This document shows, one piece after another, positions 42,087 through 64,000 of a DNA stretch of 64,000 nt. Each line of letters begins with the position of its first letter. Positions within the stretch are counted from its first letter, which is position 1. Under the pieces are notes generated by a model. The model was given only the letters and a program-made list of their open reading frames with translations, ran no database searches and was not told the origin of the DNA. The position numbers were made by a program, and so were the translations under genes. Source of the stretch: a virus; the IMG/VR virus record IMGVR_UViG_3300024348_000007. One strand, written 5' to 3'.

Positions 42087-42124
42087 AAAGAAAAATAGAA
42101 GCCTAACTGGGGAGAGTGAACCGA

Positions 42125-45100: not shown

Positions 45101-48100
45101 CAGCTTAATGTATATACAACATATGCGCAAGCTACTACAGATATGCGATCCCCAATATTCTCTGATGCTGGTGGAACTTTTAAATTTGAGCCTAACACGA
45201 GCTCAGCTCACAGATTTACAACTCCTACCGGTTGGTTAGAAATCGGTTCTAAAGTTGCAGGTTCAACCGCATTCGATACAGATAGAGCTTTATTCACTTT
45301 CAATAAACGAGTAAATTTTGACGGCGGAATTTCTGCGGCTGACACAAACGATGACGCGTATTTTAATCGCTATTACGATTATGGAGATAATAACTATTAT
45401 ATAGATGCGGCTGGAGATTCACAATTAAATACTATTGACATTGACGACTTTATCAGACATCGTGGAGATACAGGAACTTATATGGGTTTCTCTGCTGCAG
45501 CAACTTATAAAGTAGTCATAGTAGGTACTGAAAGATTAAATATTGACGGAAACTCTGCTGATTTTAATGTTGATGTTTATGCTCCTCGTTATTATGATTC
45601 TAATAATACAAACTATTACGTAGATCCTGGATCTACATCTATTGTTAATAATCTTAGAACAAATCAAATCCAAATGGATGGTTCTTCTCTAATTATCGAC
45701 TCACCATCTGGTCCTAAAGGTACCATAATGGTTACGGGTGAAAGAGATAGTTACGCTGGTTATATGATTGATAACGACTGGGGCTTTATATCTAGTGGTG
45801 CTACAGAAATGGGTCTGTATAACGAGACAGATAACGAATGGTCATTACTCGCCAATAGAAATAACTTCACAAGATTATATTCTAACAACATCCATCAAAT
45901 TGGTGCAGAAAATGGTTACGGTTACGCTCCTAACAGAATGAGAGCGCCAATATTTGAAGACTCAAACGACACGGCATTCTATGCCGATCTGGCTGGTCAA
46001 TCACGATTAAAATCTGTTAAGGCTGGCGATAGTGCAATCTATAATAATACAACTTATCCATTAGAAGTTAAGTCTTCACAAGAACGCATGATCGTTATGC
46101 AAAATACATCTGCTGACACTAACTTTCCATCAATTTTACATAATACTAGAAACTCTCGCGCTACTATGGCGTTATCATTTAACAACATTGGTGAGCGTTT
46201 TTGGTTTGAAGAAAATGGTAATATACAAGCATACGGCGCAGGTATCTTTGGATCTCTTGCACTTAACGGCGGTAATGAAGATCTTGGTCTTCTGAAAACT
46301 TATGGATCAGGACTTGCCGATCTTAAAATGTTTGATGCTTCAGACTATTGGGATAAGCGAGTTATTCAGCCGATGCAAGGTTCTGAAAACAGTGCTACAT
46401 CTAGTACAGGCGAATATGTTAAAAACGGAAATGGTCCATTTGCATCAAGTTATGCTCTAAGAACTGCGGGTTACAGAGATTTCGACTCTGATTATATTCC
46501 AGTTCAACCTGGAGAAACAATCTACGTTGAACAAGCTGTAAGAAATATTAGTGGTTCTGGCGGTTTATTTTATCTTGGTGTTAGAAGATACGATAAAGAC
46601 AAAAACCCGATTGCGTCTAACGATGGTATTGTATACTTCGGAGCAAGCGCTATTAATAATACTTCTACTTCTTGGACGGAATACAAAGGTACTCATACTC
46701 TTCCAACATCTCATACACCGTATAACGGTTCTGACGGAGAAGGTGTTCGCTATGTAAGAGTTATTTCTCTTATGAATTATAGCGCAGGTGGTGCTACACG
46801 CGAATTTGGTCCTCCAATTTTAAAACGTACTAACGTACAATCTGATTTAGTTACTCCAAATCTTACAGTTGAAGTCGATTTAACGGTAGGTGGAAACGCA
46901 ACAATTACCGGTGATTTAACAGTTGATGATATTACAGCAGATGTTATTACCGCAAATAGATTTGCAGATCGTGGTAATACTGCTTATTATGTTGAGCCAT
47001 TAACTGGCGCTAAAGTTGCTGGTTCTTGGGATTGGACAAACGGTTCTATCAACAATCTAAACAACTTAACATTTAACGATCCAGGTCCTAATGAAGGTAT
47101 TAAATGGAACGGTGGTAATCTATGGCAGATTTATGAGTCACCAAATGACTTAGCAACTAATACAGGTGGTAATTTACAATTTACTTCTGGTGCAAATCAA
47201 GGCTCGATGAGACTTAGAGTTGATACTTCTGGTGATGTATACGCTGGACGTTATCATAGAGCACAACGTTTTTATGATACTAACAATGCTGCTTACTACG
47301 CAGATCCTGCTTCAACATCTGTACTTAATCAAGTATATATTAATGAATATCTCCGCCACAGTGGTGATACAGATACTTATTTAAGATTTATAGGTGCAGA
47401 CGATATGCAGCTTGTTGCTGGTGGTCGTCAAATGCTTCGTATGGGTGAAGGTACAGATCCTGATAGATTACGATTTGTTACAGATAGTAACTGGACAGAC
47501 TCTAACGGTGACTGGGCAATGTCTCGTAATGTTGTTGTACAAGGTACACATACCGCTGTAAACAGTTCATACGCGCCAATATTCTACGATTATGATGATA
47601 ATGCTTATTATGGTAATTTTGCTGGCACATCTTTAATGAATATTGTTAGGGCAAATCGGTTTGAAGTAGATGGTTCTACAAGATATATCGACGGCATATC
47701 AGGTCAATACGGTACTATTAGAGTAACGGGTAACACAAACGGTTATGCTGGTTACGCGATTAACGATGACTGGGTGTTCATGTCAAGTGGCGCTGGAATG
47801 TCAGGCATTTATAACGATACGAATAACGAATGGTCTGCTCAATTCCTACAGAATAGTGATGTTAAACTTTATCATAACGGTGGAGAGAAATTCAGCACGA
47901 ACTCTGGTGGCGCTACAATTTATGGCAGACTAATAGCTGATTACATGGCAGATAGAAATAATACAGCGTATACTGTTAACCCTGCTGGCACATCAAGGTT
48001 CTTAGATTTAGACGTTGATAACCCTATCGGTGGAAATATCGCTGGGTATTCTGAGAACTTATTAAGAGTTGATAACAGAGATATTGAGCCAAATGATCAT

Positions 48101-50696: not shown

Positions 50697-51110
50697 ATGC
50701 CATCATATGCAGATTTAAACACTAGCATGCAAGAAAAAGCTGGGGCACAGCTACGCACGTTTGATAAAGGAATTACTATTACAATACAATCGTGGGTTCG
50801 TATTTGGGGGTTTGATAGCTCTTACGGATCATGGATGATTGTTAACGGCTATGGTTGGTATGGTAATAGTGCTCATTACCACAGATTTGAATATGTTAAC
50901 GCAAATAACACATTGTTTGAAAACTATCTTGATGGCGGAATATATACCGGTGGTATTATCCGTTCACAAGATGTTATTGATTCAATTACCGATGTTGTTC
51001 GAAGAGCTGTTGATTTGGTCGAAGGCAGACTAACTAACAGAAGTATGACTGCACGTCCTTGTCACCAAAGCTGTCATAGTAGTTGTCATACATCTAGAGG
51101 AAGAAGATAA
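50697..51110 (+). CDS. CHxS-repeat protein A (putative radical SAM substrate/precursor)
   Basis: 137 aa ending ...CHQSCHSSCHTSRGRR; GAGG RBS; paralog of the next gene. Confidence 0.8.
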   Translation: MPSYADLNTSMQEKAGAQLRTFDKGITITIQSWVRIWGFDSSYGSWMIVNGYGWYGNSAHYHRFEYVNANNTLFENYLDGGIYTGGIIRSQDVIDSITDVVRRAVDLVEGRLTNRSMTARPCHQSCHSSCHTSRGRR

Positions 51111-51532
51111 TGGCTGCATCAGTATCTGACATTAACTCATATGTACAAACATATTCTGGCTCACAACTAAGAACTTTTGATAAAACCGTCACATATACCG
51201 TAAATACGTATGTTCGGTATTATCGATTTGATAGCGCATATGGCGGTGCGTTGAGGCTTGACGGTGCTCAATATACTACAAACTCAACCTTTACTAGAAG
51301 ATATCTTCATTACTCCTGGACCGGGCGCGATGCACTCTTTGACGGCTATTATGACTCTGGAATTACTGCAGGTGGACTTATGTATGCTCAAGATATTGTA
51401 GATACTGTAGAAGATGCTGTAAGAAGAGCTGTTGATCTAATGGAGGAAAGAATCGTAAATACAGTCAAGACAATTAACGCGTGCCATGCTAGTTGCCATA
51501 GTAGTTGTCACACATCGAGAGGAAGACGCTAA
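51110..51532 (+). CDS. CHxS-repeat protein B (putative radical SAM substrate/precursor)
   Basis: 140 aa ending ...CHASCHSSCHTSRGRR. Shares QLRTFDK, FDS.YG and QD..D...D.VRRAVDL with the previous gene; TAATG coupling on both sides. Confidence 0.8.
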   Translation: MAASVSDINSYVQTYSGSQLRTFDKTVTYTVNTYVRYYRFDSAYGGALRLDGAQYTTNSTFTRRYLHYSWTGRDALFDGYYDSGITAGGLMYAQDIVDTVEDAVRRAVDLMEERIVNTVKTINACHASCHSSCHTSRGRR

Positions 51533-52707
51533 TGTCTATGCAAAAATCATATTGTAAACAAATGAGATATTCTGGACCAGAAAGTCTAACACCATCTGAT
51601 GCATCTAAATTCGATGTTCTTATTCAAATGGAAGTTTTAGCTGGGTGCGATCACGGTTGCTTAGGTTGTTTCGTAGATAAAAACATTAATCCTGATATGA
51701 ACCAACAAATTATTGATAGAGCAAAGGAACTCGCTGATGGTGTAAAAAGAACTGGGCTTAATCTTAGAGAATTTGTCATAGGTCCAACAGATTTCTTTTC
51801 TGCAACTAACACGGAGTCAGTTTTAAATAACTCAGTAGTCCAAGAGATTATGAGAGAACACGTTGGCGCTCGGATTGCAGCACCTGCAAAATTTGATATC
51901 GCTACAATGGAAAGAGTAAAAGAAATCTATGCAATTCTTGATGACGAAGATAAGTATCGCCGTGATATGATCATTGAGTTTATTATGCCAATCGGTAAAG
52001 TAGATCAGATGTTAAATGATGAAGAATACTTTAATAATGTTATGGAAAAAGTAGAATTCTTTAAAAATAATACACCAAAACAAATGGATTGGTCTTGGAC
52101 ACTACAGGCTTCTAACGTTGTTGGTAAGAAGATTGATAAAGAAACATATAACAAGATTGTTCAAAAATCAGTAAACGAATACAAGACTATTGTAGAAATG
52201 AACCCTGCTTTCTCAAGAGCGAGATCCCAATTGGTACAGCGTAGAAACCTGTTTGGATGGAACGATTTCCTTGGTAGAGTTATTGATAAAGATAACGCAC
52301 AAGAGACAGTTATGTCAATGGCTAATCTTTATTGTAACTCAATTAACTTTATTGGACTTACAATCGTACCAGGAGAACACGGACCTACTACACATTTAAA
52401 TGTAATGCTACACGAACAAGCATTCTTCCTTAATAATAAAAACTTAGACGTTACAGGTCTTACCTTCGAAGAAATATTAGATCGTAAAAACGAGCTAGTA
52501 ACCAAGGGCATAAATAGATCAAGCAAAGTATCTGATTGCAACGGATGCCAATTTGCCGTAGCTTGTGCAAGTAGACTAATTTTTGAAGCTCAAGAAACTT
52601 TAAACGTCGATGGATGTGTTTTAAACAAAGATGTCCTTGCAGAATATAACCCATACGATTGGACTTGGAACGACGATGCGATGGAAAAACTAGGAGTAAC
52701 ATCATGA
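51532..52707 (+). CDS. Radical SAM protein (GPTD-type paralog 1)
   Basis: CDHGCLGC (CX3CX2C), IGPTDFF, C-terminal CNGC-X5-C-X16-C. Start moved to ATG 51532, which overlaps the upstream stop. Confidence 0.85.
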   Translation: MSMQKSYCKQMRYSGPESLTPSDASKFDVLIQMEVLAGCDHGCLGCFVDKNINPDMNQQIIDRAKELADGVKRTGLNLREFVIGPTDFFSATNTESVLNNSVVQEIMREHVGARIAAPAKFDIATMERVKEIYAILDDEDKYRRDMIIEFIMPIGKVDQMLNDEEYFNNVMEKVEFFKNNTPKQMDWSWTLQASNVVGKKIDKETYNKIVQKSVNEYKTIVEMNPAFSRARSQLVQRRNLFGWNDFLGRVIDKDNAQETVMSMANLYCNSINFIGLTIVPGEHGPTTHLNVMLHEQAFFLNNKNLDVTGLTFEEILDRKNELVTKGINRSSKVSDCNGCQFAVACASRLIFEAQETLNVDGCVLNKDVLAEYNPYDWTWNDDAMEKLGVTS

Positions 52708-53786
52708 TAGGTCAACACCTTTATTTTTTAAATAACAAAAAATATATTACAAACTCGACTAATCTCGAAACTGTATTTTTCGAGATGAACTCGTTTTATC
52801 ACACGAAAACACCTAGAACAGTTTGTATGATTGAATCATCAATGCCAGACAGCCAAATCGTCCAGTATGATGTAAGAGTACGTGCTGATTCTATTCGCGC
52901 TAATGCCGGTGCTGATATTATTTTTAAACCTTGGGAAGAAGTTTGTACTAGTGAGTTTATCCAAAATAGCGAAAAATATATTCTTGTAGCTTGGGAAGAA
53001 GAAGATCAAATTCACATTCACGCAAGATATGCCGCTGGCTTATTAGCCGCTGCTGGTTTCTATGCAGATACTGATCACGACGTAAACACTATTGTTGGTG
53101 AATTTATGGAAAAAATCTTTGATTGTGATAGTATGTTCACGTATATGTCAGCGGCTCCTGCCGTTCAAGATATATCAAACACAGTTGAAACTATTTTGAA
53201 TAATCCAGAAACTCCACCTTTTGATGTTATATATCAAAACGGTAAAAACTTTAGCTATGACTTTTTATTCTTTTTAAACGAATTCTATCCCTGCGCAGAA
53301 GTACAAGCTCTGTTAATCGAGAAGTTTACAATTCATAGCGCTGATATGGCACAAGATGTTATGGAACACTTTACGTCACGGCGCCACTACTTGGCATATA
53401 TTCTTTCTGTAATTGATTGGATGAACAATAACGGTTTACCAGTAGATAAACAACAATTTGTAAACGATGTTTATATGAAAGCTGCTAATAAAGGTAATTA
53501 TCAAATTGCGTTTTATCAATTGGAAGAGTTATGGAATAGGGTAAAAGATAACGAAGCTTTCATTCTTGCACATACTGATAAAAGAGATAACACAAGAGAT
53601 GGTTGGGAATTTTGGGATATGTATACCGAAATAAGCAACGTATTCCCTATCGTTAAAAAGGTGCTTGAGCGTAGTTTTGATATGGATAATCTAACAGAAG
53701 ACTTGAGGTTGATTAACACTGATGTTCAGTTCTTCTCTAAAAGACAAAATAGAATTCCATATTTGATACACAAATACACATTATAG
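52704..53786 (+). CDS. Hypothetical protein in radical SAM cluster
   Basis: ATG at 52704 overlaps the upstream TGA (ATGA) with AGGAG RBS; no recognisable motif. Confidence 0.75.
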   Translation: MIGQHLYFLNNKKYITNSTNLETVFFEMNSFYHTKTPRTVCMIESSMPDSQIVQYDVRVRADSIRANAGADIIFKPWEEVCTSEFIQNSEKYILVAWEEEDQIHIHARYAAGLLAAAGFYADTDHDVNTIVGEFMEKIFDCDSMFTYMSAAPAVQDISNTVETILNNPETPPFDVIYQNGKNFSYDFLFFLNEFYPCAEVQALLIEKFTIHSADMAQDVMEHFTSRRHYLAYILSVIDWMNNNGLPVDKQQFVNDVYMKAANKGNYQIAFYQLEELWNRVKDNEAFILAHTDKRDNTRDGWEFWDMYTEISNVFPIVKKVLERSFDMDNLTEDLRLINTDVQFFSKRQNRIPYLIHKYTL

Positions 53787-53796
53787 GATGTAATAA

Positions 53797-54702
53797 ATGA
53801 ATGATAATGATACAAACAACTTGAATCCAGACAGAGAATTCGAAGATCACAAACTTTCAGAGCGTGAGAAGAATTTTAAAGCTTATACTTTACCTCTTGC
53901 TCCTCAAGATTTAGTTGCGATATATAAACAAAAAGAAGAAGATAAAGACTTTATTCTCTATGTAGACTACTATCAAACTAAACAGAAATTAAGCCCTAAG
54001 CATATTATTATATATTTGGCAAACACCAACTTTAAGGCTGGCTTTACTTTCTTAGATGAAGAATTAATTACAGAATATATTAAATCAGATTTTATGATTG
54101 ATTGTCCAATTCTTGTGCGTATGGTTTCTATTATAGTCAGAATGAGATTGCATTATGATATCAATGGTGCTGAAAAGAAATTAACTATTTTATTCCCAGA
54201 AGAAAAAATACATCAATTTATTGAACAGAACATTGAATTAGTCGATGAACTAATCGAAACTATTAGAGATTCTGTGCCGTGGGCTATGGTTAATTTGCAT
54301 GAAAACTTGACTGACGAAGCCAAAAAAGAAGAGAAAGAACTTACAAACTTTATTAATAATATTGATGTTTATGATAAACCATCGAATTGCGGACCTAACG
54401 TTGCACGATTTATTACAGAAGCTTGGGACGGGTTTTTATGTATTATTCATAATAAGGGTGTAAGCTCGACTTATAATAAAACAGTTTATAATGAACAACC
54501 AAAGTACTTTGGTAAAGATTTATACTACATTATGAACGAAACTAGGGTTATAGATCAGATTATGGCATTGTTCCCATCATGGTTTTGGGCTAAAATCGAA
54601 ACAGTAGATATAAACGCGCTATTAGAAGAAACTGAGGGCGAACATATCGATAAATTTGTCGACGGTCTTGAAGATAAGTTCAATGATAGTCCATCTAAAT
54701 AA
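53797..54702 (+). CDS. Hypothetical protein in radical SAM cluster
   Basis: 301-aa ORF, AGGA RBS, acidic and probably helical; no recognisable motif. Confidence 0.75.
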   Translation: MNDNDTNNLNPDREFEDHKLSEREKNFKAYTLPLAPQDLVAIYKQKEEDKDFILYVDYYQTKQKLSPKHIIIYLANTNFKAGFTFLDEELITEYIKSDFMIDCPILVRMVSIIVRMRLHYDINGAEKKLTILFPEEKIHQFIEQNIELVDELIETIRDSVPWAMVNLHENLTDEAKKEEKELTNFINNIDVYDKPSNCGPNVARFITEAWDGFLCIIHNKGVSSTYNKTVYNEQPKYFGKDLYYIMNETRVIDQIMALFPSWFWAKIETVDINALLEETEGEHIDKFVDGLEDKFNDSPSK

Positions 54703-55705
54703 TTCTTATGCTGGCTATTATACATATGATGAAGATAAAAGTCCAACAAATATTGATTTTCTCAGAACAGAAATAAATTTAGATATCTTACACGGATGTT
54801 CTCAACAATGTCCTGGATGCTTTATACCAAGAAAAAACTTAACAAAAGCAGATAACCTAGAAACCTTATATAATCTTCTTATAGAAGGCGCGTATTATCC
54901 TGACGAAATAACAATCGGCCCAACTGATATATTCGATGCTGAAAATTTCAATGAAATCATGAATCATCCTTATATGGAAAAAATATACGGAATATCTGCA
55001 GTAGGATTTACATCCACTTTAACTCAACCTTATCAATTAATAAGAGATAAACTTGATAAGATATGGAGTTTATATAACAATATAGCGAGAATACCGGATA
55101 TTGATTTTAAAATTGTTTTAGATATAAACAAATATTTAGATGGAGAATTAGATGATTGGTATCGTAAACTTGCGATGTTTAAACATGGTTCTGTGCAATT
55201 TAGAGTTAACTATCATAAAGATATATTCAAACGCATTTCATACAATGAATTAGCTCAAAAAGTATTCGATGACTTTAACGCGCCAGTTATAATCACGCCT
55301 TCTTTCTTAACTGATAGAAATGCAAGAGGTAAAGTAGAACAACACCTTGCAAACTTTAGACGTGAAATGGTTGAACAAAACATAGATAAAAAATGGCTAA
55401 ACTTATATACATTTTTTGATGCGAAGTTTAACGGTTATGGTTGTCAAAATTATAGTTTTTATAATAACAAACTCTATATTAATCCATTCTTATATGATGT
55501 GATTATTCAACGTACACCTCAGTTTGAAACAAATATGGATGCTAATACTTTATACGACAACATAGAATATGCACAACAAGTTGATGACTGTAATGGATGT
55601 GAATATATGATGAGTTGTGCAGAACGCAACGTTCATTTGTATATGGAGTCGAGAGGATTAGACACTTGCGTCGCATTGAAAGAATACATGTATGCCTCTA
55701 ATTAA
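54683..55705 (+). CDS. Radical SAM protein (GPTD-type paralog 2)
   Basis: CSQQCPGC, IGPTDIF, C-terminal CNGC-X5-C-X16-C; probable ATG at 54683. Confidence 0.85.
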   Translation: MIVHLNNSYAGYYTYDEDKSPTNIDFLRTEINLDILHGCSQQCPGCFIPRKNLTKADNLETLYNLLIEGAYYPDEITIGPTDIFDAENFNEIMNHPYMEKIYGISAVGFTSTLTQPYQLIRDKLDKIWSLYNNIARIPDIDFKIVLDINKYLDGELDDWYRKLAMFKHGSVQFRVNYHKDIFKRISYNELAQKVFDDFNAPVIITPSFLTDRNARGKVEQHLANFRREMVEQNIDKKWLNLYTFFDAKFNGYGCQNYSFYNNKLYINPFLYDVIIQRTPQFETNMDANTLYDNIEYAQQVDDCNGCEYMMSCAERNVHLYMESRGLDTCVALKEYMYASN

Positions 55706-56849
55706 GAATAATCTATACTATGAGATGACCACAGAGACTCAGACAAAGCCTGTATCAGCGGTTAAGATACAGCTAGACGTTTTAGACGGATGCCACCATA
55801 AGTGTCCTGGATGCTTTGTACACAGACGTGGTAACTCAAGTGATAAAAATCAGTTAGAGAATGCAAAGCAATTTATCAGAAGTATTACAGATCAAGGCAT
55901 ACTTGTTGATGAAATATTAATTGGTCCTACTGACTTTTTAGCATCAGAGAATTTCTTTGATGTCATGCCTGATTTATTAGATATTATAAATGAGAACTCT
56001 CCTATATTAGCGTTTGTTTCTACATTAATTGATGGAGACATAGAAGGATTTTGCGAGTTTATTACAGACTATGTAAATTTAGATACTGAGATAGAAATAG
56101 GTATTGCGTCAAATCCTTATAAGTTTTTCGATAAAGACTATTTACAACACATCTCTGATATGTTATATTATATAGATCAAAATCTAGAACATGAAGTAAC
56201 TTATACTTTTGTTGTTAATATAAGAGATTACGATCTAGATTATTCTGAACTTCACAGATACGCGGTAGAAAAGTTTGATACAATCCTAGATTTTATTCCA
56301 AGCGTATCGCGCTCTCATAAAGCAAAAATGATTTTAGAAACTCTTGATAAGTTTAATGATTACTTTAATGTCTTAGCCAAAGATACTAATCTTAATAACA
56401 TTATGGTTGATCATTCTCATGCTGGAATTAATTATACTGTTTTAAACTATAAAAGAGGAGAGTGGTATCTTAGTCCGTTTATGTATGAAAATATGGCAAT
56501 ATACCATGAAATGTTTAAGATAGATTCTTTTGAAGATGTCGTACCAATGGTAGAAGACCAGATACGTAGAGCAAAAGGAACTGAATGTGAAAATTGCGAG
56601 TTGTTTTTTTCTTGTTATAATAGAAAAATTATCTTATTAAGAGATTATTTAGGAGTCGATAGATGCATTGCTCCTAAAAAGAATATGTTGAACAATATAC
56701 ACAATTATAATGGCCCTGCACAAGAAATGTATAAATGGGAAGGATATTCTGTAGAGAATGACAAAAAAGGTTATCGCAAAAAGTTTTTAGTCACCACAGA
56801 TGATGATCCAGAATTAGAAAGAATTAAGGATATATCTTATGTTAAATAA
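55692..56849 (+). CDS. Radical SAM protein (GPTD-type paralog 3)
   Basis: CHHKCPGC, IGPTDFL, C-terminal CENC-X5-C-X16-C. Confidence 0.85.
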   Translation: MPLIKNNLYYEMTTETQTKPVSAVKIQLDVLDGCHHKCPGCFVHRRGNSSDKNQLENAKQFIRSITDQGILVDEILIGPTDFLASENFFDVMPDLLDIINENSPILAFVSTLIDGDIEGFCEFITDYVNLDTEIEIGIASNPYKFFDKDYLQHISDMLYYIDQNLEHEVTYTFVVNIRDYDLDYSELHRYAVEKFDTILDFIPSVSRSHKAKMILETLDKFNDYFNVLAKDTNLNNIMVDHSHAGINYTVLNYKRGEWYLSPFMYENMAIYHEMFKIDSFEDVVPMVEDQIRRAKGTECENCELFFSCYNRKIILLRDYLGVDRCIAPKKNMLNNIHNYNGPAQEMYKWEGYSVENDKKGYRKKFLVTTDDDPELERIKDISYVK

Positions 56850-57996
56850 TGATTGGAAAGATATAGTAAGTGGAGGCGGAATGGGTGAAGAGTTCGCTTC
56901 TATTGATAGTATGAAACAATATAAAATTCAAGTTAACCTAGAAATATTAGAAGGTTGCTCTTATATGTGTCCTGGTTGTTTTGTGAAACGTCGCGGAAAC
57001 TGGCATCCAAAATCAATAACAATGTTTCATTCTTTGGCTTACGAATTAAAAGATAGAACAGACATCGTATTAGATGATATTGTGATAGGACCTACTGATT
57101 TCTACGGAGCTGAAAACTTAGATGAGATTATCAATAATTTAAAATTATCTGACGCCATTAAGATGATGCCAAAAGATAATAGAAACATTCAACACAATTG
57201 TTCTATACTTGGTTCGTTATCTGAGAAAGATATTGAAGGAAAGATAAGAGATATTGAGAAATCGCCTTTAGGAGAAGCAGTAGAAGCCTGGGATGTTCAG
57301 ATCGCTTTGGATTTAAATCGATTAATGAATGACCAAGAATATATCGATGCGCTTGATGAAAGGATAGAGACATTTAAAAACAGCTCTTTAAACTTCGAAA
57401 TATCAATGGCTACTAATATCGTTCAAGGTGTAGAAGAAATACTATACCCAGCTATTGATTTTGTTCGTTCGAAATACGAAACTGTTATCGAAGTATTACC
57501 TTCTGTAGTTAGATCATTTAACCATAGTGCAAAGCACGGTGATAAACTATTTGAATGGAATGATATGTTAACTCGATTGGCATTAGATACGCATCGTTTT
57601 AAAAATAAGTTTCACTTCTTACAGGGAGATGTATCGCATAAAGCATTTAATTATTCAGTTATAAGTATTCACAAAGGAAACATGTATTTGTCTCCTTTCA
57701 TATACGAAAATGCTCAGATACACACAGAAGATTTTCTAGTATCTGATGGTTGGATGTGGTTACCAGATGCTGATATATCTGATTTCATACTAGATAGAAA
57801 GAATGAAATTGTCAATAGTCAAATTGAAAATAGTCTTGAAAAAGAATGTGGAACATGCAAATATCTTAACATATGCGCGAACAGAATGGTGCCATTAATA
57901 ATGGATACAGTATTTAATGGAAGAAAGGAATGCATTCTTAATAAAGATGTTATTGCTTTATTTGATGATGAGGTTTATCATGGGAATAGTTACTAA
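56839..57996 (+). CDS. Radical SAM protein (GPTD-type paralog 4)
   Basis: CSYMCPGC, IGPTDFY, C-terminal CGTC-X5-C-X18-C. Confidence 0.85.
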   Translation: MLNNDWKDIVSGGGMGEEFASIDSMKQYKIQVNLEILEGCSYMCPGCFVKRRGNWHPKSITMFHSLAYELKDRTDIVLDDIVIGPTDFYGAENLDEIINNLKLSDAIKMMPKDNRNIQHNCSILGSLSEKDIEGKIRDIEKSPLGEAVEAWDVQIALDLNRLMNDQEYIDALDERIETFKNSSLNFEISMATNIVQGVEEILYPAIDFVRSKYETVIEVLPSVVRSFNHSAKHGDKLFEWNDMLTRLALDTHRFKNKFHFLQGDVSHKAFNYSVISIHKGNMYLSPFIYENAQIHTEDFLVSDGWMWLPDADISDFILDRKNEIVNSQIENSLEKECGTCKYLNICANRMVPLIMDTVFNGRKECILNKDVIALFDDEVYHGNSY

Positions 57997-58999
57997 TAAC
58001 CTAAGAGCTGCTAAAGCTGATAAAGATTTTGATCTATCATTCTCTGAAGGACATGAAATTAAAGTACAGTTTAATTGCGAAGTATTATCGGGGTGTGAGT
58101 TTAAATGTAAAGGTTGTTTTGTAAACAAACTTGGTTCCAACATGGGATCTTATGATAGACTTAATAACGCTATAGATTTATTTAATGCAAACGGTTACAG
58201 AGTGTCAACCATTAATATTGGGCCTACTGATTTATTTGGTAATAATAATGTTATCGAGTTATTAAAAGACGAAACATTTCGAGAGTGTTTAAGCAAGGTT
58301 TCTACTATACAATTCGTAACAACCCTAACAAGCATTTCGCAAGAAGTTATTGAACTACTTAACAGCATCCCTAAAATAGATGGATTTTTATATGATTGTA
58401 ATATAGCTTTACAACCTCCTGTAAATTGGGATTGGGTAGAAGAGCGATTAGACCTTCTGAATGGATTTACGGATGATCTAAATTATTATATGGTTTATAA
58501 CATGGGTAATGATGACGAGTACAATTCTAAAGTGCTTGAAATGTCAGAACTTGTTGAGGATAGGTTTGACTCAATCCTTACATTAAACCCGTCATTCTTT
58601 AGAGCACCAAAATCTAAGGTTCAAAAACATCTTATTGAGAAATGGAAGAACTATGACTTCTCAGATAATCTTATGCCTAAAACATTTATTGACCAAGCGC
58701 AAGGTGGTTCTTTAGAGTTAAACTATACTTACTGCAACGAACGTTTCTTTTGGACGCCATTCGTATATGACATCGCTTTAATAGGTACTGATGAATTCCA
58801 AGTTAAAGATGAGAACGATATTGAATCATGGACTCAAGTAAAAGAAAATAAGTTTATGTCACAGTTGTCTTATTCAAGTAAAACTGATAACTGCGCCTCT
58901 TGTAAAAACCTAATGACATGTATTGATAAAGGCGTATTAAGTTATATGGAACATCATTCACTTACGGGCTGTACGTTTCCTGGAGTAATAACGACCTAA
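57980..58999 (+). CDS. Radical SAM protein (GPTD-type paralog 5)
   Basis: CEFKCKGC, IGPTDLF, C-terminal CASC-X5-C-X16-C; probable ATG at 57980 after GAGG. Confidence 0.85.
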   Translation: MGIVTNNLRAAKADKDFDLSFSEGHEIKVQFNCEVLSGCEFKCKGCFVNKLGSNMGSYDRLNNAIDLFNANGYRVSTINIGPTDLFGNNNVIELLKDETFRECLSKVSTIQFVTTLTSISQEVIELLNSIPKIDGFLYDCNIALQPPVNWDWVEERLDLLNGFTDDLNYYMVYNMGNDDEYNSKVLEMSELVEDRFDSILTLNPSFFRAPKSKVQKHLIEKWKNYDFSDNLMPKTFIDQAQGGSLELNYTYCNERFFWTPFVYDIALIGTDEFQVKDENDIESWTQVKENKFMSQLSYSSKTDNCASCKNLMTCIDKGVLSYMEHHSLTGCTFPGVITT

Positions 59000-59671
59000 G
59001 AATGTTCTTGGAAACGAATCATTAATCTTACCCCATTGTTCCATGCTATCTACAAATATATTTTTAAAAGTAACATCGATATCTTCCATTGGATAAATCG
59101 CCATCAGATCGTTACCGTAATTTAATCTAACTTCGTATGTTTCGTCTTTTAAAGGAAACAATAAGAATACATTAATCGCATGTTGATCATAGAAATTAAG
59201 AACGCCTGGTGCTACAAGTATCCCATGCTTGCGTAAATCTTCACTGTAATGAAATTCACAATTCATAAAATCTACTGGCTTCTTAGCTTTTAAATACCAA
59301 GGAGCTTCTAATTTCACGACAGCATATCCCTTATAAAAATCATCGCCATACTGTCTTTGTTCATGCACACCAGTACTGACTTGATGAGAATGCAACGGAC
59401 TTGCAGACGAAACCTTTCCGTTTGGTTCAACTCTAAAAATCATATCGGACCACAATCTCATTATAATAGCTTTTTGCATATATTGTGTAATTCCAGGACA
59501 AGCCTTTACAGTTGGGGTTGGAACCATAATGCCTGACTTTGAATTATAAACAGTGTACATTGTCGACAATTTTTTCCACCATGAAGGCTTTCTAATTTTA
59601 GATGTCCATTTAAAATTTTCGAAAACGCTTTTATCGTAAGTGTAAGCTTCAATCTCTAGTTTTTTTCTCAT
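58958..59671 (-). CDS. Hypothetical protein (TVKACPGI...W.D family, beta-rich)
   Basis: Long ORF ending the - strand cassette. TVKACPGITQYM..AIIMRLWSD resembles a recurrent phage hypothetical family of unknown function. Confidence 0.65.
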   Translation of the reverse strand: MRKKLEIEAYTYDKSVFENFKWTSKIRKPSWWKKLSTMYTVYNSKSGIMVPTPTVKACPGITQYMQKAIIMRLWSDMIFRVEPNGKVSSASPLHSHQVSTGVHEQRQYGDDFYKGYAVVKLEAPWYLKAKKPVDFMNCEFHYSEDLRKHGILVAPGVLNFYDQHAINVFLLFPLKDETYEVRLNYGNDLMAIYPMEDIDVTFKNIFVDSMEQWGKINDSFPRTFLGRYYSRKRTARK

Positions 59672-60728
59672 AATCAAATCCTGTAATTAAGTTCTGTCCA
59701 GTTTTTTCCATATAGTTAAACCACATTCTCATGATGCAGTCAGGTAAGTCTCGTTCTCTATTCTTCCAATCCCATTGGGTATAACATCTAAATCCACATT
59801 TGTTCCACCACTTACAAGATAAACAACCATTCTCGTCCATATATGCTTGCATCATACCAGCATTATCTTTGGGTTTATATTCTGTATTAAAATCTCTCTG
59901 ATCATATCTATCCCATCTACAGTTTGACGTAGAATTATCGGGGAATATCGTAACCTTATTTAAAGCCAAGCAATGCATATGGTTACTATCATTATATATA
60001 AGATCTTTTATAGGATTAATATCGGGATAGTTATGATATACAAATTTAAGAAATTCTAAGTATTCACTATCAGATGGAATCATATAATCATAACCACGAT
60101 CTGGAATGTAATCATCAAAGTAAAAGTTATCAAACTTTTCATATAGATAGTGAAAATACTCATCATCGTCTGCCATAAACTTTTTTATTGATAAAGTAGT
60201 AGCAACCATATTAATTGATACGATATAGTCGGCAAAGTATTCTATATTTTTAGCATATGGACCTTTTGTTGGTCGCCCATCAAAGTCATATGAACATATA
60301 ATATGTGAAGGAATTGCTTCAGCGTTTAGGTCGTCGAGCAGTCGCTGAACTCTGTCTCGTTTACTAAATTGAAACGATGTTACCCACACAACTTTAATTT
60401 TTTGTTTATGTTCGTCAAATATCTTTTTAATTGCTACAAGGAAATCAAAGTAAACAGGGTAAGCCCATTCTGATATTCTATCTTGGAATAACTCACCGCC
60501 AACCATATTGATTTGGATTATATCAACTCTGCCTTTCATCTTAATGACATGTTGTTCAACTAAATCCAATTTAGAGAATATCTCTTCCCTACTCAATCCT
60601 ACGGTAGATTTTTTATCATGATGGCAGAACGAACAATTGAGGTGACAGTTTTCAAATAAAGTCAACTCAATCTCAGCGATATCAGGTCGTTTAGTTTCTA
60701 ATAATGTTTTTGTTATTTCAAAGTCCAA
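59649..60728 (-). CDS. Radical SAM protein with SPASM-like C-terminus
   Basis: CHLNCSFC, MVGGELF, C-terminal HC...NC...CLSCKWWNKCGFRC...DC. Probable TTG start at 60728 after GAGG (ORF open to 60785). Confidence 0.85.
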   Translation of the reverse strand: MDFEITKTLLETKRPDIAEIELTLFENCHLNCSFCHHDKKSTVGLSREEIFSKLDLVEQHVIKMKGRVDIIQINMVGGELFQDRISEWAYPVYFDFLVAIKKIFDEHKQKIKVVWVTSFQFSKRDRVQRLLDDLNAEAIPSHIICSYDFDGRPTKGPYAKNIEYFADYIVSINMVATTLSIKKFMADDDEYFHYLYEKFDNFYFDDYIPDRGYDYMIPSDSEYLEFLKFVYHNYPDINPIKDLIYNDSNHMHCLALNKVTIFPDNSTSNCRWDRYDQRDFNTEYKPKDNAGMMQAYMDENGCLSCKWWNKCGFRCYTQWDWKNRERDLPDCIMRMWFNYMEKTGQNLITGFDYEKKTRD

Positions 60729-61116
60729 ATAACATTTCCTCTTTATAGTATTCGTAGATATCGGGAACCATACCAAGTTTTTCATTAAACTCTAGTTGGA
60801 ATAGTATCTCGTCGTAAGTTTCTTTGTCTTGCCAATATGGAACAAAGTGCGGATCATTATTAAATAGTAACTCAGGATCGTTAAGTGCATCGAAAAACGG
60901 TTCGTTAAAATCCCTGTTTAACCAATGAGCATAACATATAGCAACTACATATGATTTAGCTGGGTAAATCCATTCGTCTACATACTCTCTGAAGTGTGTT
61001 AGAGCAAACTCAACCGTAAGGTCAGGTTGCCAATTAATCTCCACGTCAGTCAGATCATCTTTGAATAAAGATGCTGTCAAATGATATGCGCTTTGTCTAG
61101 CTTTCCATTCTTTCAT
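60718..61116 (-). CDS. Hypothetical protein in radical SAM cluster
   Basis: Acidic, aromatic-rich ~132-aa ORF overlapping both neighbouring radical SAM genes; start at 61116 or 61143. Confidence 0.7.
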   Translation of the reverse strand: MKEWKARQSAYHLTASLFKDDLTDVEINWQPDLTVEFALTHFREYVDEWIYPAKSYVVAICYAHWLNRDFNEPFFDALNDPELLFNNDPHFVPYWQDKETYDEILFQLEFNEKLGMVPDIYEYYKEEMLFGL

Positions 61117-62005
61117 AATATTCCAACAATCCTTTATATCCATTACAACTATTAGTCAAATCTTTAACATATCGGTAATGTTCTGTTAAACAATTACCAT
61201 AATATTTACACGTCTTACATATTTCGCTTAGATTGTTCTCAGGTTCTTCCCTTGCCCACTTCTTGTACTCATAATATGTTTTATATTCTTTGAAGTATTC
61301 CCTATCATATTTATCGAACTCCAATACCCCAAACTTACCAGATGGAGTAATATACACATGATCATTACTAAAAGCATCATACTCTTTATCTATGCTTCTC
61401 CATATATTATCCATATTCTGAAAATTAAACTTTTTCTCTGTTTTTGCTTCGTCAAACTTAATAACAAAATCTTCAAAGTCTTTGTGTGTAACAGGATGTG
61501 CATTTGCTTGGTTTATTGAGTAAGGTTTAATTTCTACAGACTTAATATTAGATACCATATTAAGAGTGAAGATCATAAACTCTACATCCATCTCTAATAC
61601 TTTTGGAGAGGCCAATATTAATACAGATAAATCCTTATTGGCGTTCATCATATTATTTAAAACATGCTGTTCTTTTTCTCTGGCATGGAAATCATATGAT
61701 ACAGATAATGTTACATCCTCATCTCGAAAGAAGTCTGGGAACGCAGACAAATTAGTATTGATATTGATAGGACCTTTGTAATAATTACGTATTACTTTCT
61801 TTAATGAATAATAATATTCTGGTGATAGTAAACCAATCTCACCGCCGTATAGATCTACGTGCCCTATTTGATCATCTACTTGACTTAAAGAATGATCTAA
61901 CCATAAAGGCGTTATCTTATGTCTATCGTTTAATTGTGCTGGCGTTAAATAACAAAAATCACAACTGAAGTTACAATAGTAGGTGGGATTAATTGATAGA
62001 TTCAT
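61097..62005 (-). CDS. Radical SAM protein with partial SPASM-like C-terminus
   Basis: NPTYYCNFSCDFC, LYGGEIG, C-terminal CKTCKYYGNCLTEH...SC; start at 62005 or 62011. Confidence 0.85.
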   Translation of the reverse strand: MNLSINPTYYCNFSCDFCYLTPAQLNDRHKITPLWLDHSLSQVDDQIGHVDLYGGEIGLLSPEYYYSLKKVIRNYYKGPININTNLSAFPDFFRDEDVTLSVSYDFHAREKEQHVLNNMMNANKDLSVLILASPKVLEMDVEFMIFTLNMVSNIKSVEIKPYSINQANAHPVTHKDFEDFVIKFDEAKTEKKFNFQNMDNIWRSIDKEYDAFSNDHVYITPSGKFGVLEFDKYDREYFKEYKTYYEYKKWAREEPENNLSEICKTCKYYGNCLTEHYRYVKDLTNSCNGYKGLLEYYERMES

Positions 62006-63026
62006 CAACATAAGGCGTCACCATATCTGGGCTCATTCCATTCGTAGCAAGTATTCTTGGAGCGAGCGTTTTCATTTGTTTGCAATGTGCTTCATTTGTC
62101 CCTTCTCTTTTCATATCACGTACTGTCTTTTTACAACCATTACATATTTCGAACATTGGACACGTATAGCAAGCCATCTTCATTGTTTGGATATGAGGAT
62201 CGTTAGCCAATGGAGTCTGCATTTCGCCATTCATTTCTTCCTCAAAATCAATAGGATAATCCATATCATCAGCAAACGAACCGCAAGAATAGTAATCACC
62301 GCCAGGGTTAAAAGCTCGAATGCCACTATCACATTGTCTATTTTGTGGACAAGATGTTGAAAAACCTTTGAGGCGTTTCATCATTTGCTTTGTATTATAT
62401 TCGTATTCTGCTAATCCACGATCGTATATCTCAAGATATGTTTCGTAAATCTTACTTAACTGATATGTACTGCCTTGAACACCAGAAGCCATAGCATAAT
62501 TTAGTTTGCATTCTACACCCATTTCTTTAGCAAGTTCAACGTTCTTAATAGCAAGATGTTCGTTCTCATCTGTTATGACGGCAATAAAGTCTGGTCTTTC
62601 TCCAGTGTGTTTCAACATAGCGTTTGATACCATCCAAAAATCTTTCTCAGTAAATTCGGAATAATCACCTTTTAATCTACCACCACCATATTGAAATGAT
62701 GTTGCACAACCAAACCTATCATTCTTAAAGATAGGAAGCCACTTCTCGGGACGCATTAAAAAAGGCCACAGATTAGATGTAAAACTAATTGATGCGGGAT
62801 AATCATGTTCATTAAGATGATCTATTAGTTCCTGATAATATTCTGGCTTTACCATAAGAGGGTCACCACCATTAACGATAATAGTATTAGTATCGGGATA
62901 TCGCTTAAGAAATTTGTATATGTATTCCAAGTCTAATAAGCCAACTTCGTTAGGATCGATGTCGGTAGAAGAACAAAATGTACATTTAAAATTGCAAGCT
63001 TCAGTGGGTTTAATAATTAAATCCAT
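61989..63026 (-). CDS. Radical SAM/SPASM domain protein
   Basis: IIKPTEACNFKCTFC, NGGDPL, SPASM-like CPQNRQC...YSCG...CYTCPMFEICNGC...HC. Confidence 0.9.
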   Translation of the reverse strand: MDLIIKPTEACNFKCTFCSSTDIDPNEVGLLDLEYIYKFLKRYPDTNTIIVNGGDPLMVKPEYYQELIDHLNEHDYPASISFTSNLWPFLMRPEKWLPIFKNDRFGCATSFQYGGGRLKGDYSEFTEKDFWMVSNAMLKHTGERPDFIAVITDENEHLAIKNVELAKEMGVECKLNYAMASGVQGSTYQLSKIYETYLEIYDRGLAEYEYNTKQMMKRLKGFSTSCPQNRQCDSGIRAFNPGGDYYSCGSFADDMDYPIDFEEEMNGEMQTPLANDPHIQTMKMACYTCPMFEICNGCKKTVRDMKREGTNEAHCKQMKTLAPRILATNGMSPDMVTPYVDESIN

Positions 63027-64000
63027 CCCTTATCTCCTGCTAGTTTTAGCATTAGAGTTTTAGGCGCTGGACAAACGTCTTCCATCCATTGAAGTTGGTG
63101 ACAATCAGAATGGCAATAGATAAAGACTGGGCAATCATAACATCTTGGATCACGATCATGAGTTTCACACGAAATGATTTCCATTCGTTTCGGGCTTAAT
63201 CTTACTTCTTTTGCTGGCATACTAATATCACCATACCATTGAGTAGGCGCAGTATTAGGACAACCTGCTACAGTTCCATCAGCATTGATTGTGTGTATCT
63301 TTTGTTCACAATCCCTACAGAACGTACCATTAAAGAATTGACCTTTACTAAACTTATCATAAACTGAGTTAAGAAAGTTGTTTTCAATAGGGTGATCTTT
63401 AGTTGTCTCATGCATTTTCATCCAAAAAGCATCGAGCTCAGAATTATGAGGGAAGATTTCTGTGTTTATCGTTGCGTTACCATCATGAGTAAGTCTTTCA
63501 TAACTAATAGTACCAATACCTAATGAATACATATAATCAGCAATTTCAAGAGGATCCATTGCAACAACATCTTTAGACACTGAAATAAAGCATTGGATAT
63601 AACATCCCTCAGCTACCAAAAGCTTTACATTATCTTCCCATAACTTTCTCTGCTTTTCATTTGCAAATCTAATATTTGGGTCCCAAGATGTACCGATAGA
63701 ACCAGAGTCTAATATTTTAAGAAACTCGATACGTTCATCTGTAAGTTTATAAGTTAGATTTGTTGTAATACCATGTGTGCATTTATCACCCCAATGATCT
63801 TTCGTAACATTGTAGAAATGCCACAGATCTTTCATAGGCGCTAGCAAAGGTTCTCCACCATGATATTCGAAGTGAATACGGTTTGAACCATCGTCTAGTT
63901 CGTTACACCACTTTGCAGTTTTATCTGCATCAAAATAAATTTTACGACCATTGATACCAGAGGTAAAACAATGTGCACAATTTAAATTACAAGTTTCTGT
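63017..64000 (-). CDS. Radical SAM/SPASM domain protein, 5'-truncated by the window end
   Basis: The frame stays open upstream of the listed ORF to base 64000 and reads TETCNLNCAHCFTSG...EYHGGEPLLAP. SPASM-like CRDC...GCP...CYDC-X5-C-X3-C...C. Confidence 0.9.
   Translation of the reverse strand, partial: TETCNLNCAHCFTSGINGRKIYFDADKTAKWCNELDDGSNRIHFEYHGGEPLLAPMKDLWHFYNVTKDHWGDKCTHGITTNLTYKLTDERIEFLKILDSGSIGTSWDPNIRFANEKQRKLWEDNVKLLVAEGCYIQCFISVSKDVVAMDPLEIADYMYSLGIGTISYERLTHDGNATINTEIFPHNSELDAFWMKMHETTKDHPIENNFLNSVYDKFSKGQFFNGTFCRDCEQKIHTINADGTVAGCPNTAPTQWYGDISMPAKEVRLSPKRMEIISCETHDRDPRCYDCPVFIYCHSDCHQLQWMEDVCPAPKTLMLKLAGDKGWI

Follow-up and report, generated by a model that had tools for sequence, protein, structure and literature searches.

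A C-terminal (CHxS)3-RGRR tail strictly linked to phage radical SAM genes points to a probable maturation pathway for a virion protein

Phage proteins ending in three C-H-x-S units and R-G-R-R are strictly linked to radical SAM genes across the loci compared, and one homologue is present in a virion. We put at roughly 60% the probability that these loci encode a phage-specific maturation pathway, in which the tail is the substrate and radical SAM/SPASM enzymes together with a cupin modify a virion protein that is neither cleaved nor exported. The window, that is, the whole 64-kb stretch of DNA analysed, contains two such proteins (A and B) with a shared tail, followed by nine genes with a CX3CX2C motif, five on the + strand and four on the − strand; inspection of the open reading frames confirmed the original observation of this arrangement. 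The features are as follows.

42116..50695, + strand: tail-fibre-like giant protein, 2859 aa, conserved C-terminal domain with ADLAE...ALKGR motifs
50623..50630, + strand: TATAAATA, T4-type late-promoter-like motif, 67 nt before gene A
50697..51110, + strand: tail protein A, 137 aa, tail CHQSCHSSCHTSRGRR at 51060-51107
51110..51532, + strand: tail protein B, 140 aa, paralogue of A, tail CHASCHSSCHTSRGRR at 51482-51529
51532..52707, + strand: aR1, atypical radical SAM-like enzyme; CX3CX2C, phrog_31457, family invariants
52704..53786, + strand: U1, conserved, family not recognised, syntenic in type I loci
53797..54702, + strand: U2, conserved, function not recognised, phrog_20767
54656..55705, + strand: aR2, atypical radical SAM-like enzyme; CX3CX2C, phrog_31457, family invariants
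55692..56849, + strand: aR3, atypical radical SAM-like enzyme; Pfam Radical_SAM 20.6 bits (sub-threshold), phrog_31457
56839..57996, + strand: aR4, atypical radical SAM-like enzyme; CX3CX2C, phrog_31457, family invariants
57917..58999, + strand: aR5, atypical radical SAM-like enzyme; CX3CX2C, phrog_31457, family invariants
58958..59677, − strand: U3, final gene of the − strand cassette, phrog_7084
59649..60785, − strand: cR6, radical SAM with seven-Cys SPASM-like C-terminus; phrog_1802 E 6e-20, GGE motif and cysteines conserved
60718..61143, − strand: U4, small conserved protein, phrog_20737, 3' of cR7 in both cluster types
61097..62011, − strand: cR7, radical SAM with four-Cys auxiliary motif; phrog_1802 E 2e-32
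61989..63026, − strand: cR8, radical SAM/SPASM; Pfam Radical_SAM 36.8 > 29.5
63017..64000, − strand: cR9, radical SAM/SPASM, exits the window; NCBIfam PapB 2.6e-9, SPASM TIGR04085 27.1 vs 27

The fibre stop codon and the start of gene A are separated by 1 nt, and TAATG overlaps are found at both the A/B and the B/aR1 junctions. The likely start of aR1 is the ATG at 51532, which overlaps the stop codon of B (longest ORF from 51505), and that of U1 is the ATG at 52704 (longest ORF from 52659). On the contig past the window cR9 is complete, and a cupin gene fragment precedes it there.

A and B share the C-terminus CHxSCHSSCHTSRGRR and are 46% identical as whole proteins. Their tails agree at 15 of 16 residues, yet differ at 11 of 48 nucleotides. 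The tail was kept at the extreme C-terminus in 119 of 120 database homologues with identities from 35 to 98%, which rules out chance. Its DNA exists in 65 distinct versions with free synonymous changes, and serine codons even alternate between the AGY and TCN families, indicating that selection acts at the protein level. The tail holds three tandem H-x-S units, repeats of the kind that define His-Xaa-Ser substrates, and a structure prediction for the tail alone gives a disordered chain (pLDDT about 50).

IMG/VR was searched with a DNA pattern of the tail that ignores both the carrier and the enzymes, and at least 118 stretches were obtained, 117 of which were analysed. Homologues of the cR or aR enzymes were present in 112 of the 117 loci, and the remaining 5 are cut off beside the tail gene, so the expectation that tail proteins do not occur without radical SAM genes was upheld. 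The same count (112/117) describes the clustering of a precursor gene with modifying enzymes that is canonical for RiPPs. Similar results were obtained with a carrier-based search, in which 55 of 55 loci showed the linkage. Four to nine radical SAM genes lie beside the tail gene at each locus, and in type II clusters the tail gene is placed between them. The same cassette was found in the cultured jumbo phages Ralstonia RSL2 and RSF1, Burkholderia FLC6 and S13, Agrobacterium Atu_ph07 and Pseudomonas pPa_SNUABM_DT01, and the linkage spans genome organisations as different as T4-like marine phages, the phiKZ-related Chiangmaivirus and the Rak2-like Atu_ph07. Among 185,579 species genomes, the cassette was seen only on phage-like contigs of one MAG and in no genuine cellular genome.

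The carrier domain of A is predicted to be folded, and its hairpin loop is hypervariable. This loop, placed at the tip of a predicted beta-hairpin, also varies in length, as expected if the carrier is an exposed virion protein. Carriers range from 124 to 309 aa, and the tail was found on two or more carrier domains between which similarity is slight or undetectable: homology between the N-terminal parts of the carrier families was not detectable by hhalign (probability below 1%), and the 60 residues preceding the tail showed marginal similarity (53%). The enzyme set is constant across these families, indicating that the tail, and not the carrier, accompanies the enzymes.

The CX3CX2C motif, which binds the SAM-coordinating [4Fe-4S] cluster, is located near the N-terminus of 9 of 9 ORFs. 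Its three cysteines are invariant across 144 members of the aR family and conserved in cR6, cR8 and cR9. The four − strand genes matched phrog_1802, annotated as radical SAM domain-containing protein (E 6e-20 to 5e-54), the five + strand genes matched phrog_31457, and the aR and cR groups were related to each other by hhalign (probability 76-83%, E about 1e-5). Together, the motif, the PHROG and hhalign matches and the invariant cysteines tie all nine to the radical SAM superfamily, as judged from their sequences. The profile searches gave a mixed picture. The gathering threshold of Pfam Radical_SAM PF04055 (29.5 bits) was exceeded by cR8 only (36.8), with cR9 (24.4), cR7 (21.1), aR3 (20.6) and cR6 (17.0) below it, and aR1, aR2, aR4 and aR5 gave no match in the Pfam search. 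The cut-off of 27 bits of the SPASM model TIGR04085, which describes a C-terminal seven-Cys domain with two auxiliary clusters, was reached by cR9 (27.1) and not by cR8 (21.4), and the His-Xaa-Ser TIGRFAMs scored far below threshold. Eight conserved C-terminal cysteines are found in cR8 and seven in cR6; cR7 and the aR family have four only, in the pattern CX2CX5C...C. The best characterised matches were peptide or protein maturases throughout, namely NCBIfam DynA (1e-14), anSME (7e-11) and the anSME structure PDB 4K36 (E 5e-7) for cR8, and PapB (2.6e-9), DarE (4e-8) and HxsB (2e-7) for cR9.

The cupin scored above threshold for Cupin_2, and its RSL2 version also for JmjC_2, a family of protein hydroxylases. 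U1 gave no match in Pfam, NCBIfam and Atlas searches. The model of U4 is confident (pLDDT 88), but its fold is not recognisable, and the best fold match (Z 3.4) is not significant. No RRE or PqqD-like domain was matched in Pfam and NCBIfam searches of the cassette proteins; likewise, neither a transporter nor a protease that could act as leader peptidase was recognised in the window or related loci with these libraries, in line with the first reading of the sequence.

The suggestion that the product is a virion protein found support in one phage. Atu_ph07 gp170 (296 aa, 31,894 Da, tail ...CHSSCHASCHNSRSRR) is listed in the published virion proteome as a 31.89-kDa protein with 8 unique peptides and 35% coverage, the C-terminal peptide not being among those reported (PMC6102473 Table S5). 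The radical SAM proteins gp165, gp168 and gp171 are absent from the same list (PMC6102473 Table S5). The list comprises 131 proteins, some of them non-structural, such as RNR and terminase (PMC6102473), so carry-over of gp170 is possible. The protein was spread over gel bands 1-9 with its maximum in band 1, the top band (PMC6102473 Table S5). No reducing agent is named for the sample buffer as published (PMC6102473), so the high-mass gp170 could be a disulfide-linked or SDS-resistant oligomer rather than an enzymatically crosslinked one. In the RSL2 and RSF1 records the homologue carries no virion protein label.

In most loci compared the tail gene lies directly 3' of the fibre gene, as it does at this locus. 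With the gene that precedes the tail gene in most loci, the fibre protein shares only its C-terminal domain, the final ~140-200 residues (about 50100-50692). Because 23 of 70 loci have this domain without a downstream tail gene, the link to the fibre is one of position only. The domain gave no match in a Pfam search, and its profile (~50243-50692) matched the phi29 gp12 autochaperone 3GQH weakly, in two collinear stretches (E 0.021). Autocleavage is the second hallmark of this domain type. In this respect, Atu_ph07 gp176 (66.07 kDa) is most abundant in a gel band where proteins of 50-57 kDa run, and the portion preceding its ADLAE motif has a mass of 52.5 kDa. Six copies of the late-promoter-like motif lie in the window; none is on the − strand, and five are within about 75 nt 5' of a start codon; the total is not above chance, and the promoter reading is thus suggestive only.

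Modification of the tail, its chemistry and the location at the fibre are what we infer from these data. The substrate would be the nearly invariant 16-residue C-terminal tail, appended to variable carriers. In the infected cell, the core enzymes cR6-cR9, the JmjC-like cupin and the small protein U4 would act on it, joined in this lineage by as many as five radical SAM paralogues of the atypical group and by two proteins of unrecognised function. By analogy with the nearest characterised relatives, PapB (thioether), DynA/DarE (cyclophane/ether) and anSME (Cys/Ser oxidation), the likeliest chemistry would be the formation of C-S and/or C-C crosslinks in the Cys/His/Ser repeats, or oxidation at their C-alpha positions; the cupin may hydroxylate His or Arg. 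The matured protein would be neither cut nor exported, and would become part of the virion, probably together with the tail fibre whose gene lies just upstream. More tentatively, the multi-enzyme pathway may turn the C-terminus of a fibre-associated virion protein into a Cys-His-Ser knot that is crosslinked or oxidised. If so, this would be the first virus structural protein matured by radical SAM enzymes, and phages could here have their own equivalent of the bacterial HXS system. Once modified, the basic tail might tether the protein covalently to the fibre, withstand host proteases and redox conditions, or have a role in the envelope while the phage adsorbs or its genome enters.

At the T4 fibre tip, His-x-His motifs coordinate metal, and the three Cys-His pairs of the tail are classic metal ligands. 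The tail could be a metal or Fe-S site instead of a substrate, either coordinating metal in the fibre or accessory to enzymes that modify something else; the tail protein would then be a cluster donor, electron carrier or scaffold, and the fibre, another virion protein or nucleic acid the target. The predicted disorder of the isolated tail (pLDDT about 50) fits this explanation, as do the Fe-S assembly genes also encoded by radical-SAM-rich marine T4-like genomes (PMC5332604). We nevertheless regard it as unlikely: an accessory to cytoplasmic enzymes is not expected in a virion lacking those enzymes, a structural site would not explain why unrelated carriers are all obligately linked to a set of four to nine radical SAM genes, and metal binding does not account for the invariant Ser and R-G-R-R.

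A route in which the modified 16-residue tail is released to serve as a redox cofactor or a small bioactive compound, with the carrier as a long leader as in a classical RiPP or a peptide-derived cofactor of the PQQ or mycofactocin type, is less probable still. SPASM maturases usually target C-terminal cores, type II clusters embed the substrate gene among enzyme genes, and one of U1-U4 could be a novel protease. Against this, the Pfam and NCBIfam searches recognised no protease, transporter or RRE, and the carrier is a folded domain of 124-309 aa with hypervariability in places where conservation would be expected of a leader. The cluster also lies in the fibre/host-recognition region. Canonical RiPP release was rejected, as neither a leader protease nor an exporter was recognised in the window or related loci and a full-length homologue is found in virions. 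The position of the tail gene also resembles that of T-even gp38, whose gene directly follows the fibre gene. That the tail proteins serve as adhesins or as chaperones of fibre assembly, with the tail as docking peptide, next to a radical SAM cassette that is an unrelated island neighbour, is nonetheless very improbable. Although radical SAM cassettes are gained and lost in pelagimyophage host-recognition clusters (PMC7029224), the linkage is essentially complete across phage lineages of differing genome organisation, and chance co-location is insufficient for a tail gene amid radical SAM genes in type II clusters.

For the preferred reading, enzymatic maturation of the tail, the PapB, DynA and cyclophane families are the top-scoring characterised relatives of cR8 and cR9, yet scored far below family cut-offs. 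PapB makes ranthipeptide Cys-Asp thioethers, DynA and DarE act in dynobactin and darobactin maturation, and XyeB, YhhB and AmcB form three-residue cyclophanes. The phage enzymes share with them a radical SAM core with a C-terminal SPASM/auxiliary-cluster domain, and in these families one enzyme is able to process several copies of a short motif, as may be the case here. Unlike them, the phage system has no recognised RRE, leader-recognition domain, leader protease or exporter, its substrate is a folded protein of 124-309 aa, and up to nine paralogues are encoded per locus. Identity with ranthipeptide/SCIFF maturases was rejected (PapB NF047865 36.8 vs 340; SCIFF TIGR03974 17.6 vs 425). Like the putative phage pathway, anSME works directly on a protein without an RRE, oxidising Cys/Ser in C/S-x-P/A-x-R; the final repeat C-H-x-S-R has the same Cys-to-Arg spacing, and among solved structures 4K36 comes nearest to cR8 in sequence (E 5e-7). 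Position 3 of the tail motif, however, is T/S/G/N instead of P/A and a sulfatase is absent, and identity as an anaerobic sulfatase maturase was rejected (TIGR03942 41.8 vs 349).

No published description of this phage system was found in the literature searched. Marine T4-like radical SAM cassettes have been described in a pelagimyophage host recognition cluster (PMC7029224) and in an environmental T4-like genome with 12 radical SAM genes (PMC5332604). These concern the same kind of genome and the same variable fibre/host-recognition island, and report gene presence only, naming no substrate, tail motif or function. The claim that no system of this architecture has been characterised held in the literature searched, with the functionally related bacterial HXS anti-phage system, published in 2026 (PMC13128918), as the closest known system. 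There, the effector HxsA is matured by the radical SAM enzymes HxsB and HxsC with HxsD (Li et al., Nat Commun 2026, PMC13128918). Maturation gives a site-specific mass change of +8 Da at an S-H-x-S-S motif, every repeat being needed, and the matured HxS-repeat protein exerts its effect in the periplasm, at the step of DNA entry (PMC13128918). The HxsA and HxsD models gave no match to A, B or U1-U4, and the His-Xaa-Ser models (TIGR03976-03979) matched only far below threshold (HxsB 30.1 vs 370 for cR9, HxsC 24.5 vs 267.9 for cR8); the phage system is therefore not in that family. Both systems have a full-size protein, rather than a short peptide, with tandem H-x-S units in a basic context, several radical SAM enzymes with a small partner protein, and a place in phage-host conflict at the cell envelope. 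In contrast to HXS, the phage system is encoded by the phage and apparently virion-borne, its units carry a Cys ahead of the His (C-H-x-S), three of them stand at the extreme C-terminus followed by RGRR, the protein has no recognised peptidoglycan-binding domain, and four to nine radical SAM genes and a cupin are present versus two radical SAM genes in HXS.

The window spans almost the entire 66.4-kb metagenomic contig, a baseplate and fibre region from a T4-like myophage. The gp6-like wedge protein encoded there is nearest to those of the Sinorhizobium phages phiM12 and phiN3 (39% identity), and the host is therefore likely to be alphaproteobacterial. In the gene order below, A and B are the tail proteins (137 and 140 aa), aR1-aR5 the + strand atypical radical SAM-like genes, cR6-cR9 the - strand radical SAM(/SPASM) genes, and U1-U4 proteins of unknown family.

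Gene order of the fibre region and cassette
9854-15205, giant ORF before the fibre gene, 1783 aa
18194-30235, giant ORF before the fibre gene, 4013 aa
30657-35351, giant ORF before the fibre gene, 1564 aa
35446-35772, 108-aa ORF matching tail-fibre-assembly PHROGs
35776-39627, giant ORF before the fibre gene, 1283 aa
42116-50695, + strand, fibre-like protein of 2859 aa, 3' of several giant structural ORFs
50697-51110, + strand, A, small ORF starting one base past the fibre stop
51110-51532, + strand, B, small ORF 46% identical to A
After B, + strand, aR1, U1, U2 and aR2-aR5, with overlapping stop and start codons
Convergent, - strand, in transcription order: cupin gene (off the window), cR9, cR8, cR7, U4, cR6, U3
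8181, 18155, 29836, 35412, 42079 and 50623, all + strand, six exact copies of TATAAATA

A and B share the ending C-H-x-S-C-H-S-S-C-H-T-S-R-G-R-R despite their 46% identity, and the CX3CX2C motif was present in all nine aR and cR ORFs. The original prediction had thus described the sequence accurately, with two paralogous tail ORFs, nine CX3CX2C genes and a convergent - strand cassette. Five of the six TATAAATA copies precede the start of a structural gene by no more than about 75 nt; the total of six is below the shuffled expectation of 11. The pattern fits T4-type late promoters. The copy before A, at a distance of 67 nt, is similar to those in front of structural genes, which faintly suggests late co-expression.

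The tail, comprising the C-terminal 16 residues (C-H-x-S)x3-R-G-R-R, was exactly C-terminal in 119 of the 120 B homologues from the database (35-98% identity). The DNA encoding it took 65 distinct forms, with several codons used at every fixed residue and both the AGY and TCN families used for serine, indicating that selection on the tail acts at the peptide level. When IMG/VR was scanned for a degenerate DNA pattern covering the tail and the stop codon, at least 118 stretches matched, and 117 loci were analysed. As originally predicted, tail and radical SAM genes co-occurred: homologues of the window's enzymes were present in 112 of the 117 loci among the matches listed, and the remaining five are stretches that stop no more than about 1.7 kb from the tail gene. 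The same linkage was observed in 55 loci found via the carrier domain, i.e. the tail protein minus its tail.

Among the 117 analysed matches listed, the tail proteins formed three size classes (124-140, 170-219 and 257-309 aa). With the tail removed, hhalign detected no similarity between the N-terminal parts of the small class and those of the larger classes (<1%), and the 60 pre-tail residues showed marginal similarity only (53%, E 1.3e-4); the carriers of the two larger classes are mutually related (99%). Thus one tail is attached to differing carriers. No longer, fused protein containing the A domain turned up in a search, a weak line of evidence. Two cultured phages depart from the consensus: in Pseudomonas phage pPa_SNUABM_DT01, PA10_00065 (locus L257, 5294-5830) ends in CHTSCHTSCHSARGRR, with Ala replacing the last Ser, and the Atu_ph07 tail has RSRR instead of RGRR. 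The final Ser and the Gly are therefore not strictly required.

Two layouts of the cassette recurred. Type I, as in the window, runs fibre, A, A', aR1, U1, U2, aR2-5, followed by Cup (the cupin gene preceding cR9)-cR9-cR8-cR7-U4-cR6-U3, the latter in convergent or in matching orientation. In type II, the order is fibre, Cup, cR9, tail protein, cR6, cR8, cR7, U4, and aR genes are present in some cases. The layouts therefore have in common a core of the tail protein, Cup, cR6-cR9 and U4, and the aR paralogues, U1 and U2 are lineage additions. In some type II loci (L177 12632-13467; L150, L197, L048), long tail proteins occur as a tandem pair (309 and 260 aa) or cR9 is duplicated around an aR gene; the cassette is therefore expanding independently in several lineages.

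Among the nine enzyme ORFs, the Pfam threshold for Radical_SAM was passed by cR8 only, and all four cR proteins matched phrog_1802, annotated as radical SAM domain-containing protein (E 6e-20 to 5e-54). The GGE motif is kept in cR6, cR7 and cR9 and reads GGD in cR8; in three of the four, the C-terminus holds 7-8 conserved cysteines, and the SPASM domain of cR9 scored 27.1 against an NCBIfam cut-off of 27. The aR1-aR5 proteins form their own family, phrog_31457, in which the three cluster cysteines, GPTD at the GGE position and a CX2CX5C...C auxiliary motif are invariant (144 members), and hhalign linked this family to cR6 and cR9 with 76-83% probability. The closest characterised relatives of cR8 and cR9 (DynA, DarE, PapB, anSME, CbpB and HxsB) are all peptide or protein maturases, and the scores against their models were all far under the family cut-offs. 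Judged by these profiles, cR8 and cR9 therefore represent new branches within the SPASM group that modifies peptides, outside every named family. For U1 and U2, the ESM Atlas search gave no usable match. U4 may be a partner of the RRE/PqqD-like or HxsD-like kind, but its model (pLDDT 88) matched no fold (Foldseek E > 1, best Z 3.4).

The simplest account is that the core enzymes act on the tail as their substrate, because tail and enzymes travel together across unrelated carriers and phages, and because the enzymes belong to the peptide-modifying SPASM group and have no recognised RRE domains, like anSME, a direct protein modifier. By analogy, the thrice-repeated unit would suit enzymes such as PapB, with each repeat processed in turn. 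Within C-H-x-S, the modified site may be the Cys sulfur, giving a thioether; the His-x-Ser unit, as modified in HxsA or in three-residue cyclophanes; or the C-x-x-S-R end, where Cys and Arg are spaced as in the sulfatase motif. The JmjC-like cupin could hydroxylate His or Arg.

A nucleotide or cofactor role for the cassette was also considered, prompted by two DHFR-like genes in the clusters of the Ralstonia phages RSL2 (L001 16941-18090, ORF073/074) and RSF1 (L256 6328-7245 and 14330-15619). This role was rejected, as DHFR genes were absent from the cluster maps of the other loci, with maps only being compared. The RSF1 cluster additionally holds GIY-YIG and HNH homing-endonuclease genes; because these adjoin the DHFR-like genes, both look like insertions into the Ralstonia-phage cassette. 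The fibre was weighed as a further component. The tail gene or cassette is in most loci immediately preceded by a gene for a protein of 258-3319 aa that has only its last 140-200 residues in common with the window fibre. The profile of this C-terminal domain (window 50243-50692, ADLAE...ALKGR) weakly matched the C-terminal autochaperone fragment of phi29 gp12 (3GQH, E 0.021). The domain occurs without a tail gene downstream in 23 of 70 loci, and in some phages a second fibre also has it, which ruled it out as a component of the system; it is therefore a general fibre module. In Atu_ph07, gp176 (L002 24634-26457; 66.07 kDa) bears the domain, and its segment before ADLAE is 52.5 kDa. The protein peaks with 50-57 kDa proteins, about 14 kDa lighter than predicted (PMC6102473), consistent with autocleavage. 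Gene position suggests a link between tail protein and fibre. In marine T4-like phages, this region is a variable "host recognition cluster", where radical SAM cassettes have been recorded unexplained (PMC7029224, PMC5332604).

The idea that the product is a virion protein gained support from Atu_ph07, since the homologue gp170 is listed in its virion proteome (PMC6102473). PEG-purified particles were studied by SDS-PAGE and ESI-MS/MS, and gp170 was detected with 8 unique peptides at 35% coverage (31.89 kDa; 31,894 Da from the translated gene). It was spread over bands 1-9 with its maximum in band 1, which was otherwise the peak mostly for 75-139 kDa proteins, whereas most 30-34 kDa proteins peaked in bands 7-8 (PMC6102473, Table S5). 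Most gp170 therefore migrates as an SDS- and heat-stable high-mass form. Because the sample buffer is described without reductant, disulfides, a stable oligomer and an enzymatic crosslink are all possible. The radical SAM proteins gp165, gp168 and gp171 were missing from the virion list, as were gp166, gp167, gp169 and gp172 (PMC6102473, Table S5). The AlphaFold model of A was confident at residues 1-120 (pLDDT 82), with a disordered tail; it shows a long beta-hairpin between two helices, the second of them long. The modelled hairpin tip corresponds to the hypervariable, length-variable part of the A family, as would be expected of an exposed surface. No convincing match was obtained against the PDB (Foldseek, best E 0.19) or with VIA-align (best Z 5.7); against BFVD, the top row was a 296-aa uncharacterised Atu_ph07 protein of gp170 length (E 0.03).

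Radical SAM maturases are known in bacterial peptide natural products, in cofactor biosynthesis and, since 2026, in one anti-phage effector. The nearest characterised system is bacterial HXS defence, in which two radical SAM enzymes, together with HxsD, mature a protein that carries five basic H-x-S repeats; this protein shows a +8 Da shift at an S-H-R-S-S motif and acts in the periplasm to stop phage DNA from entering (PMC13128918). The phage system is similar in logic but differs in motif, motif position, enzyme number and the side of the conflict that encodes it, and came out negative in the HXS membership tests. The "radical SAM maturase" of cyanophage S-SCSM2R was set aside, as it lies in an unrelated sugar/antibiotic-type cluster (PMC12801897). 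The literature search found no paper tying phage radical SAM cassettes to a substrate, in agreement with the earlier claim that no system of this architecture has been characterised. If the reading of the tail as substrate is true, 4-9 radical SAM genes (up to about 13 kb) devoted to a single 16-residue tail on a protein of the particle would represent a new use of this chemistry and account for the puzzling cassettes of marine T4-like and jumbo phages. Such a pathway, notable for being widespread and strictly conserved, could matter for host recognition, virion stability or DNA entry, and the invariant tail may serve as a portable tag for a defined enzyme set.

The system is open to direct test, since cultured Agrobacterium, Ralstonia/Burkholderia and Pseudomonas phages of very different lineages carry the cassette: Ralstonia RSL2 (ORF068, 186 aa, ending ...CHSSCHTSCHGSRGRR) and RSF1; Burkholderia FLC6, FLC8 and S13; Agrobacterium Atu_ph07 (gp170, ending ...CHSSCHASCHNSRSRR); and Pseudomonas pPa_SNUABM_DT01. 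Sinorhizobium Phosso carries a cR8 homologue. Megablast of the region and tblastn of B gave no match to cultured phages, and these relatives surfaced only when the query was an enzyme, the RSL2 homologue or the tail pattern. Among 185,579 prokaryotic species (one genome each), the tail protein was confined to three phage-like contigs of one Rhodobacteraceae MAG; the system is phage-specific. A match on a 3.2-Mb alphaproteobacterial contig (L061) was spurious, with neither a tail ORF nor an enzyme homologue. The three contigs (L058, L059 and L060; FZLS01, "Rhodobacteraceae bacterium Water_Bin34") are different phage contigs with the system in one MAG, which is either a binning artefact or a host hint, and one of them encodes proteins 91-99% identical to those of the window.
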